64,000 nt of DNA from Escherichia coli (GCF_003018255.1 NZ_CP027440.1); one strand, 5' to 3'; positions 30,729 through 32,312 are shown, counted from the first letter of the stretch. The notes: generated from the sequence alone by a model not told the origin. Made by a program: numbers and translations.

Positions 30729-31426
30729 TTAATCGTATCAAACTGGAGCACATCCTCGAATATGCCGGGCAGCAGAGGCATATTGGTCAGCATTGTAAAA
30801 TTCCACCAGGAGATATGGTTGAAATCATGGAGATTGCCATGCGCAAGGCTGGCAACCCTCCGGTAACTCCGGGGCGTTTGCCTGGCGGTTTCACCATTGA
30901 GGAGGCGAAGGAGTTACATGAAGACCTGGTGCGCAGCCACATAAGCAAGGCTTTAAGTGGCGAAAAGATGAAGAAGAAGGATCTCGATGCTGATTTGCGC
31001 TGGATCCATGGGGTTATAGTCCAGGCCGCTTGGTTTGTAAAAGCATCACTGGAGCAGAATGTGCTAACGGGTAACTCTCAGGTAATCCCTGATGACGGTC
31101 GCGAACAGTTTGAAACACTTATCAGGTTCCATGCAGATGATAAAAACCATGAAACATTATTGCTTCGTGCTAACGAAGGGATGAATTACCGGGATCCAAA
31201 TGTGGATTTGGCATGGATATTCTGGAAATCCAGTCGAGAGCACATATTGCCTGGAAAAAGCGACAATAATCCAGCATCAGGCGATCAGGTAAGTGAATTA
31301 ACAATGTGGGTGAAGCGGTTATCTCATTCCTTAAAAAGCGTTAATAAATCAAGCAAACTACCGGATAAAGCGATGGACTACCTGAAGCGAAACGGACTGA
31401 TAAACGAGGAGAATATTTTACGATGA
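30725..31426 (+). CDS. hypothetical protein
   Basis: 233 aa ORF translationally coupled to upstream and downstream ORFs. Confidence 0.5.
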   Translation: MINRIKLEHILEYAGQQRHIGQHCKIPPGDMVEIMEIAMRKAGNPPVTPGRLPGGFTIEEAKELHEDLVRSHISKALSGEKMKKKDLDADLRWIHGVIVQAAWFVKASLEQNVLTGNSQVIPDDGREQFETLIRFHADDKNHETLLLRANEGMNYRDPNVDLAWIFWKSSREHILPGKSDNNPASGDQVSELTMWVKRLSHSLKSVNKSSKLPDKAMDYLKRNGLINEENILR

Positions 31427-31506
31427 CCTGGCCTGAAGCGTTCATAACGGTAGGAATTGCAATGGCGGTGGCGCTGGTGGTGTATTCGATTTGCCGCTGG
31501 GGATAA
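31423..31506 (+). CDS. 27 aa hydrophobic peptide (below ORF-track cutoff)
   Basis: ATGA overlap with upstream stop; translation MTWPEAFITVGIAMAVALVVYSICRWG, a single TM helix. Confidence 0.3.
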   Translation: MTWPEAFITVGIAMAVALVVYSICRWG

Positions 31507-31599
31507 AAACGGTTTGCGGGGAAAGAAGAGTTAAGTAGAATTGCTGCGGGTGCTTGAGGCTGTCTGCCTCGGGCATGCCGCCGTAAGGCAGACAGAGAA

Positions 31600-31700
31600 A
31601 AGCCCCAGTTAACATTACGCGTCTTGCAGGACGCTTAACATTAATCTGAGGCCCAATCTATGCTTCACAAACGTAGGTTAGCCTCTTACGTGCCGAAAGG
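31600..31700 (-). ncRNA. putative Sok-like antisense RNA region (approximate)
   Basis: Inferred from hok-locus organisation only; promoter not identified. Confidence 0.2.
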
Positions 31701-31716
31701 CAAGGAGAAGCAGGCT

Positions 31717-31872
31717 ATGAAGCAGCAAAAGGCGATGTTAATCGCCCTGATCGTCATCTGTATTACCGTTGTTGTGACGGCACTGGTAACGAGGAAAGAC
31801 CTCTGCGAGGTACGAATCCGAACCGGCCAGACGGAGGTCGCTGTCTTCGTAGACTACGAATCTGAGAAGTAA
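31717..31872 (+). CDS. hokD: Hok/Gef-family type I toxin (HokD/RelF-like)
   Basis: MKQQKAMLIALIVICITVVVTALVTRKDLCEVRIRTGQTEVAVFVDYESEK, near-identical to recalled HokD/RelF; AAGGAG RBS; structured leader and 3' fold-back region. Confidence 0.85.
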   Translation: MKQQKAMLIALIVICITVVVTALVTRKDLCEVRIRTGQTEVAVFVDYESEK

Positions 31873-32039
31873 GAGTGACCAAGCGAGGGAGAAATCCCTC
31901 GCCACCTCTGATGTGTCAGGCATCCTCAACGCACCCGCACTTACCCCGTTCGGCAGACTTTGTTTTTTCCTGGCATTCTGGTTTACAATTCGCACGTCAG
32001 CCTGAACAACTGGCACCTGCTGCGTCACCGGAGAACCCG

Positions 32040-32312
32040 ATGGCGCAACATATAAAATCCCACAATTCTGAAGTCGATCCGGCCATTAAGCGGGGGCGGC
32101 GTTCGCACGTATTTAAAACTGACTGGTACCAGCATCCCCCATGCACTGAAGAACAGGCCGAATGGCTGATCCAGTGTTACCGCAGGCGCGGATATGAGTT
32201 TGAGAAAGCCCTCAGCCTCGATTATCGTCACTGGATAATCTCCGTCAGGCTCCCTTATTCCGAACGCCCACCGCGTCCGTCCCGCACATTCCAGCAGCGC
32301 ATCTGGAGGTAA
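32040..32312 (+). CDS. hypothetical protein (Rem-like by position)
   Basis: 90 aa from MAQHIKSHNSEV with GGAG RBS; sits between hok and the YdfU-like gene as rem does in Qin. Confidence 0.4.
   Translation: MAQHIKSHNSEVDPAIKRGRRSHVFKTDWYQHPPCTEEQAEWLIQCYRRRGYEFEKALSLDYRHWIISVRLPYSERPPRPSRTFQQRIWR

Follow-up and report, generated by a model that had tools for sequence, protein, structure and literature searches.

Probable complete hok/mok/sok cassette of the hokW/sokW type in the early-right region of a lambdoid prophage of Escherichia coli

Genes and signals at the locus

The window, by which we mean the whole stretch of 64,000 nucleotides of Escherichia coli DNA that was analysed, carries between positions 31423 and 32040 a Hok-family toxin gene, an overlapping mok frame and a putative Sok antisense RNA gene, preceded by a 27-aa hydrophobic ORF (Table 1). 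The sequences that match it best, with 99.8% identity, come from the chromosomes of Shiga-toxin-producing strains. The gene order annotated there is replication protein P, DUF1627, DUF4406, two hypothetical or pseudogenes, hokD and a hypothetical protein, continuing 3' with DUF968, RusA, antiterminator Q and tRNAs. This annotation places the cassette in the lambdoid nin region, co-oriented with the early-right genes, and we regard it as most probably a moron carried there by a lambdoid prophage, with the replication genes on one side and DUF968-rusA-Q on the other.

Table 1. Features at and around the hok locus, with window coordinates, strand and basis of assignment
Feature	Position	Strand	Basis
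Two upstream ORFs	30360-30728; 30725-31426	+	ORF list; PHROG
27-aa single-helix hydrophobic ORF MTWPEAFITVGIAMAVALVVYSICRWG	31423-31506	+	conserved length, Shine-Dalgarno, codon changes
Inferred hok promoter	31514-31541	+	read from sequence; -10 conserved
Predicted full-length hok mRNA, ~390 nt, with mok and hok	31548-31940	+	MFE fold, consensus fold
hok mRNA leader, Rfam RF01794 ('sok')	31548-31722	+	Rfam match
tac element GGGUGCUUGAGG, mRNA 5' end	31548-31559	+	pairs with fbi or ucb
Putative Sok antisense RNA gene, from 31668 down to ~31598	31598-31668	-	position from 933W sokW misc_RNA
ucb / anti-Shine-Dalgarno box AAGCCCCAG	31600-31608	+	pairs with mok Shine-Dalgarno or tac
mok Shine-Dalgarno GAGG, 8 nt 5' of mok ATG	31648-31651	+	sequence
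mok ORF, 70 aa, in frame with hok	31660-31872	+	ORF list; mokW length and design; PHROG 251
Putative Sok promoter, -35/-10	31675-31703	-	identity to 933W sokW
hok Shine-Dalgarno AGGAG	31703-31707	+	sequence
hok toxin ORF, 51 aa	31717-31872	+	Pfam HOK_GEF; HokD/HokW identity
Candidate TadA A-to-I editing site, hairpin UAGA-CUACGAA-UCUG	31850-31864	+	MFE fold
3' stem-loop GCGAGGGA-GAAA-UCCCUCGC	31883-31902	+	predicted in both folds
fbi element CCUCAACGCACCC, complementary to tac	31924-31936	+	MFE fold; 33/33 relatives
Decayed intrinsic terminator, ACCCCG-TTCGGCAGACTTTG	31940-31968	+	3' flanks of ~70 related loci
90-aa ORF, phrog_1212, function unknown	32040-32312	+	PHROG E = 1.5e-36

The hok gene comprises the last 51 codons of the 70-aa ORF. 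Its product scores 80.1 bits against the Pfam family HOK_GEF (PF01848; cut-off 22, E = 8e-23), which is far beyond chance; the assignment to Hok is secure. This confirms the first-pass annotation in its view of a type I toxin locus of the Hok family, set in a nin region like that of Qin. Its description of the toxin as near-identical to HokD/RelF needs correction: the identity to K-12 HokD is 45 of 51 residues (88%), and among named proteins HokW of phage 933W comes closest with 49 of 51, the window protein differing from it by the conservative substitutions L16I and I19V.

The 70-aa frame starts 5' of hok, overlaps it, carries its own Shine-Dalgarno sequence and matches PHROG 251, 'MokW-like host killing' (E = 7e-32). 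mokW (213 nt) and hokW (156 nt) of phage 933W end at a common stop codon, and the window ORF likewise has 213 nt. A stop codon is also common to mokC and hokC of K-12, while mokB is out of frame with hokB, so that both in-frame and out-of-frame mok genes are normal. The in-frame extension, earlier thought to replace a separate mok frame, is thus mok itself, in the design of mokW and mokC. mok of plasmid R1 may be out of frame with hok, although an R1-type plasmid sequence, read by eye, has the mok ATG in frame.

Within hok, the Tyr47 codon (TAC, 31855-31857) falls in a 7-nt CUACGAA loop on a 4-bp stem in the MFE fold. This loop resembles the TadA editing sites of hokC, hokD and hokE, in which the equivalent Tyr is edited (PMC12214031). 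The predicted loop mimics the anticodon loop of tRNA-Arg, and the codon is a candidate for Tyr to Cys editing here, at A31856.

The two upstream ORFs encode phrog_5117 and phrog_924 proteins, both of PHROG families with unknown function, and Pfam gave no match for them, the 27-aa ORF or the 90-aa ORF. No relBE pair is present 5' of hok; as already noted in the first-pass annotation, its place is taken by the two ORFs and the 27-aa ORF. On the 3' side, ~170 nt of non-coding DNA separate the hok stop from the start of the 90-aa ORF. The latter had been called Rem-like, but BLASTP gave no alignment with K-12 Rem even at E ≤ 100; it is a phrog_1212 protein, to which the name rem should not be given. 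The label YdfU-like, on the other hand, holds for the DUF968 protein further downstream (257 bits), which is 85% identical to K-12 YdfU. The succession of YdfU (DUF968) and Q corresponds to the Qin arrangement, and rusA and Q are annotated in a near-identical locus.

The start codon of the 27-aa ORF overlaps the TGA of the upstream ORF, which encodes 233 aa, as ATGA. Several variants of the small ORF occur among 80 related viral loci, with the length of 27 codons kept in all except one divergent variant (25). The peptide termini are conserved (M-x-W-P-E-A-F at the N-terminus, I-C-R-W-G at the C-terminus), and a strong Shine-Dalgarno sequence, GGAGGTG, precedes the ORF in most contexts. For a version with 65% nucleotide identity, 9 synonymous changes stand against 11 non-synonymous, mostly conservative ones. 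A tblastn search of the phage collection found the ORF in 93 phage records. These features suggest a real, conserved small membrane-protein gene that is usually left unannotated.

Messenger RNA and antisense RNA

The inferred hok promoter consists of a -35 box TTGCGG (31514-31519), a 16-nt spacer and a -10 box TAGAAT (31536-31541) that 933W and the majority of related cassettes have kept. Transcription would start at G31548, where the Rfam model begins; both mRNA ends are provisionally placed, by homology only. A promoter and terminator scan found no terminator and missed both the hok and the Sok promoter, which are weak matches to the consensus. The hok promoter went unflagged by this consensus scanner because of its weak -35 box, and the single match obtained, on the + strand at 31635-31664 within the leader, is at chance level (0.5 expected). 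Since the scan flagged neither promoter, both calls rest on identity to the 933W/Sp5 locus.

The leader matches Rfam family RF01794 with 117.7 bits (gathering score 59, E = 2e-27) over the full model, positions 1-157 of 157, and is in this respect a conserved structured leader. Although the family is named 'sok', the match sits on the hok-sense strand and stops at the hok ATG; the model describes the mRNA leader. The match was therefore rejected as evidence for an antisense Sok RNA.

Folding of 31548-31940 gave a minimum free energy of -163.6 kcal/mol (z = -7.4), with the two ends of the RNA closed by a 12-bp helix between tac (31548-31559) and fbi (31924-31936) and with the mok Shine-Dalgarno sequence paired to GCCCC of ucb (31602-31606). 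When the RNA is trimmed to 31906, tac is instead predicted to pair with ucb, and the mok Shine-Dalgarno sequence with dcb (GCCUC, 31681-31685; z = -6.2). The two states of the R1 hok mRNA, tac/fbi with Shine-Dalgarno/ucb at full length and tac/ucb with Shine-Dalgarno/dcb after processing, comprise the same pairings (PMC9841398). The consensus fold of 33 unique relatives retains the tac/fbi closure in every one and contains compensatory pairs at columns 15/47, 340/353 and 342/351, the last two of which lie in the 3' stem-loop. tac is invariant in all unique relatives examined, as are the ucb alignment columns 56-62 except for one gap among the 33. Based on the folds, the 3' stem-loop is likely the protective end of the processed mRNA.

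Directly 3' of fbi, most nin-type cassettes carry a clean terminator, AACCCGCTTCGGCGGGTTTTT. In the window and two relatives it has undergone about five clustered changes and no longer folds: at 31940-31968 folding gave no hairpin of significance (z = -0.3), nor did the terminator scan detect a terminator. Formation of the 3' end may therefore differ in the window, and the decayed terminator may allow read-through. It was rejected as a mark of inactivation, since the functional 933W-type locus has no terminator at this place either.

The position of Sok was transferred from the sokW misc_RNA feature (2676-2746 in the 933W sequence used, offset 28922), which annotates a 71-nt 'SokW antisense RNA' opposite the mokW/hokW strand. 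In the predicted fold of the window Sok, a long hairpin is flanked by an unpaired 5' tail and by a GGGGCUUUUCU tail (-29.6 kcal/mol, z = -4.7). Its promoter, with a -35 box TTGCCT (31703-31698), a 17-nt spacer and a -10 box TAACCT (31680-31675), is identical to that of 933W in boxes and spacing, and it was exactly the sokW -10 box whose mutation abolished sokW function in the work of Takada et al. (primers YO-421/422; PMC8621323). The primers and probes of that Sp5 study match the window with few mismatches, YO-597 exactly. Being cis-encoded, Sok is automatically complementary to its target. At the sequence level the window thus appears to contain a cis-encoded Sok that has a promoter of its own and overlaps the start of mok. 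The first-pass annotation had held that a functional Sok could not be determined by eye; we consider the question answerable from the sequence, because the boxes are identical to those of the validated sokW and the hairpin and U-tail are intact.

Relation to known hok loci

The closest characterised system is hokW/mokW/sokW of the Stx2 phages 933W (AF125520) and Sakai prophage 5 (Sp5), with 91% nucleotide identity over 31423-31945. Beyond the toxin, the two loci agree in the 70-codon in-frame mok ORF, the 27-aa ORF directly upstream, and identical tac, ucb, fbi, Sok -35/-10 boxes and Shine-Dalgarno sequences of both mok and hok. They differ in position: the window cassette lies in the nin region before DUF968-rusA-Q, the 933W cassette at 58.4-58.9 kb of a 61.7-kb record, beyond the very large ORF L0134. 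Sok also differs at about 6 of its 17 most 5' nucleotides, as a result of which the mok N-terminus reads MLHKRR in the window and MLNTCR in 933W; compensatory changes are found in two stems, and the 3' flank consists of the decayed terminator in the window and of unrelated sequence in 933W.

Every sequence and structure element of such a cassette is present and intact in the window, namely promoter, tac, ucb, mok Shine-Dalgarno sequence and ATG, sok promoter and hairpin, hok Shine-Dalgarno sequence and ORF, 3' stem-loop and fbi, and sequence comparison with 933W revealed no disabling change in any of them. The cassette is of an already known type, that of the annotated 933W and the functional Sp5 loci, and is for this reason not a new system.

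With hokD (relF) of the K-12 Qin cryptic prophage the window has in common, apart from the toxin itself, the same fbi in the 3' UTR and the neighbourhood of YdfU followed by Q. In contrast, similarity begins only ~15 nt 5' of the hok ATG, where hokD adjoins relE (which ends 71 nt 5' of the hokD ATG), and the hok promoter, tac, ucb, the start of mok and sok are therefore all missing from K-12 hokD. Further differences are the relBE pair directly 5' of hokD, the rem gene between hokD and ydfU, where the window has the unrelated 90-aa ORF, and an intact terminator 3' of fbi in K-12. The comparison made in the first-pass annotation should thus be turned round: the window cassette is the complete form and K-12 hokD the derived one, and the K-12 arrangement is best read as a truncated derivative.

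The hok/mok/sok system (parB) of plasmid R1 resembles the window in architecture, in its two-state mRNA logic and in the place of the Sok promoter. Unlike the window cassette it resides on a plasmid, where it serves in post-segregational killing, and the toxins are only ~44% identical (PMC8621323). As a point against the reading put forward below, chromosomal hok loci tested earlier gave no post-segregational killing, according to the passage of a preprint that cites those tests (bioRxiv 10.1101/2025.08.07.668861). K-12 hokC (gef)/mokC/sokC has a very similar leader and the in-frame mok with a common stop, but is chromosomal, lies outside a prophage with IS186 just downstream, and has a shorter Sok hairpin.

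Proposed mechanism and alternative readings

[quoted passage not shown] Its transcription, processing, toxicity and biological role are all matters that we infer. Based on homology with R1 hok/sok and Sp5 hokW/sokW, we propose the following hypothetical multistep mechanism, in which (i) the weak promoter (-10 TAGAAT) would give rise to an mRNA of ~390 nt starting at 31548; (ii) in this full-length mRNA, tac would pair with fbi and ucb would hold the mok Shine-Dalgarno sequence, so that the RNA would be neither translated nor bound by Sok; (iii) slow 3' trimming to the stem-loop at 31883-31902 would remove fbi; (iv) tac would then pair with ucb, exposing the mok Shine-Dalgarno sequence in the stem formed with dcb; (v) translation of mok would lead to coupled translation of hok; (vi) in carriers of the prophage, the short-lived Sok of ~70 nt would pair across the mok start region and block translation of mok, and thereby of hok, with RNase III destroying the Sok/mRNA duplex; and (vii) upon a drop in Sok, caused by loss of the element or, as shown for Sp5, by prophage induction, Hok would enter the inner membrane and kill or lyse the cell. 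For Sp5, HokW is toxic and neutralised by sokW, whose protection partly needs RNase III and Hfq, and mitomycin C causes sokW to fall and HokW to rise, an effect that depends on RecA, while deletion of the locus halves phage release (PMC8621323). By homology with this locus, toxicity of Hok and its neutralisation by Sok would be expected of the window copy as well.

The Sp5 response to mitomycin C and the reduced phage release also speak for a different use of a functional cassette, in which Hok would come mainly from read-through of the early-right operon at induction, head-on transcription would silence the Sok promoter, and the cassette would serve as a helper of lysis or release and not as an addiction module. 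We give this reading a minority chance of being right. The orientation of hok, which is that of the flanking replication, nin and Q genes, is in its favour, as is the lack of any terminator-like site between the upstream ORFs and hok in the scan. However, such a transcript would lack the 5'-terminal tac, and the Sp5/933W cassette lies elsewhere in the phage genome, so that the Sp5 induction result may not transfer to a cassette at a different position.

Less probable still, and in our view unlikely, is that the cassette is an inactive relic that is no longer properly expressed or regulated, as are most hok loci of K-12. The terminator 3' of fbi has decayed relative to related cassettes, the promoters match the consensus poorly, and hokA, hokC, hokD and hokE of K-12 are considered inactivated; for all K-12 hok loci except hokB, inactivation is ascribed in the literature to IS elements or to rearrangement (PMC7232551, PMC12214031). 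But the K-12 copies lost elements through these insertions and rearrangements, whereas the window has every element; its Hok departs from HokW by conservative changes, and the 933W/Sp5 locus functions without a terminator 3' of fbi.

A functional role of the 27-aa ORF alongside hok, for instance as a second toxin or modulator in a three-gene system, is very improbable: the ORF does lie directly 5' of the hok promoter in the window, 933W and many related cassettes, and other cassettes hold a different small hydrophobic ORF at that place, but the peptide was rejected as a toxin-antitoxin component since its ORF occurs without adjoining hok in ArgO145 (96% identity) and BP-4795 (63%), some hok cassettes have no such ORF, and HokW/sokW constructs, which may or may not include it, act as a toxin-antitoxin pair (PMC8621323). 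In every case the ORF adjoins the stop codon of an upstream gene, so that it travels with the upstream module, to which we assign it as a separate small gene.

As a discovery the locus matters little, given the annotation of 933W in 1999, the functional work on Sp5 in 2021 and the enrichment of hok/sok cassettes in prophages described in a preprint (bioRxiv 10.1101/2025.08.07.668861). Its practical value is one of annotation: it should be labelled hok/mok/sok (hokW type), together with the Sok RNA. Possible subjects for small follow-ups are the unannotated 27-aa membrane ORF, the decayed terminator and the variable recognition tail of Sok.

Among related prophage cassettes, the segment 31652-31676, which contains the Sok 5' tail and the mok start, is hypervariable and occurs as about six discrete haplotypes. 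Pairwise diversity is ~0.22 in this segment versus ≤0.01 in the Sok promoter and the hok start that adjoin it. The simpler explanation would be relaxed constraint, the segment being unpaired; only tentatively do we hypothesise diversifying selection for mutually orthogonal Sok/hok pairs. If this were true, several hok cassettes within one E. coli genome would not cross-protect. DNA similar to the window cassette is found in 254 phage records, mostly of Stx-converting phages, and, among 5426 complete E. coli genomes, in 4740, where the number of matching places has a median of 2 and a maximum of 12.

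Small membrane ORFs and phage genes 5' of hok

Codon-level conservation of the 27-aa ORF preceding the hok promoter suggests that it is translated. The ORF is found in 93 phage records, some with and some without hok, and its ATG overlaps the stop codon of the preceding gene as ATGA, a coupling seen with upstream genes of varied kind. It mostly lacks annotation. Other prophage cassettes have small hydrophobic ORFs of a second family, such as MSDDISLAMEGALAVIAVVGVYCLVVFLMDRLGN, at the same site, immediately 5' of the hok promoter, and therefore most related cassettes have a small membrane ORF in this position.

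Features near hok and downstream of Q
Feature	Location	Strand	Description
27-aa ORF, conserved	window 31423-31506; related loci L088:2001-2084 and L089:2001-2084	+ in window	single helix; consensus M-x-W-P-E-A-F ... I-C-R-W-G
Second-family hydrophobic ORFs	~60-170 nt upstream of hok mRNA start		related loci L013, L053, L058 and relatives
STnc100 sRNA matches (n=5)	window 37959-38171 and 39931-40910	+	Rfam RF02076, 119-172 bits

In the 99.8% identical RefSeq genome locus L001 (4938-6004), both ORFs 5' of hok are labelled as pseudogenes, one of them under the name 'valyl-tRNA synthetase, incomplete'. Their counterparts in the window (30360-31426), 122 and 233 aa long, are both intact and belong with the phage families phrog_5117 and phrog_924 by their matches; the RefSeq label looks like an annotation artefact.

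Sequence variation and a candidate editing site in the hok cassette

Across 33 unique relatives, variability within the cassette is highest at 31652-31676, the segment that encodes the Sok 5' tail together with the opening codons of mok. About six haplotypes occur there, and pairwise diversity is ~0.22; the adjoining Sok promoter and the start of hok hardly vary. An intrinsic terminator follows fbi, the mRNA 3' element that pairs with tac, in most related cassettes. In the window, this terminator (31940-31968) carries approximately five clustered changes, shared with two IMG/VR relatives (L008 and L011), and no longer forms a hairpin.

A short stem at 31850-31864 presents the Tyr47 codon of Hok in a CUACGAA loop, which mimics the anticodon loop of tRNA-Arg. 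This codon is a candidate site for A-to-I editing by TadA, which would change Tyr to Cys; such recoding has been reported in hokC, hokD and hokE of K-12 (PMC12214031).

STnc100 matches downstream of Q

Four of the five STnc100 matches, positioned 3' of Q and a pair of tRNA genes (36984-37145), follow one another head to tail every ~270 nt, and TRF confirmed a 270-nt repeat at 40100-40777. Such a tandem array may be an unusual arrangement, since the pasA and pasD copies of the related Pas sRNAs are described in a recent preprint as dispersed rather than tandem.
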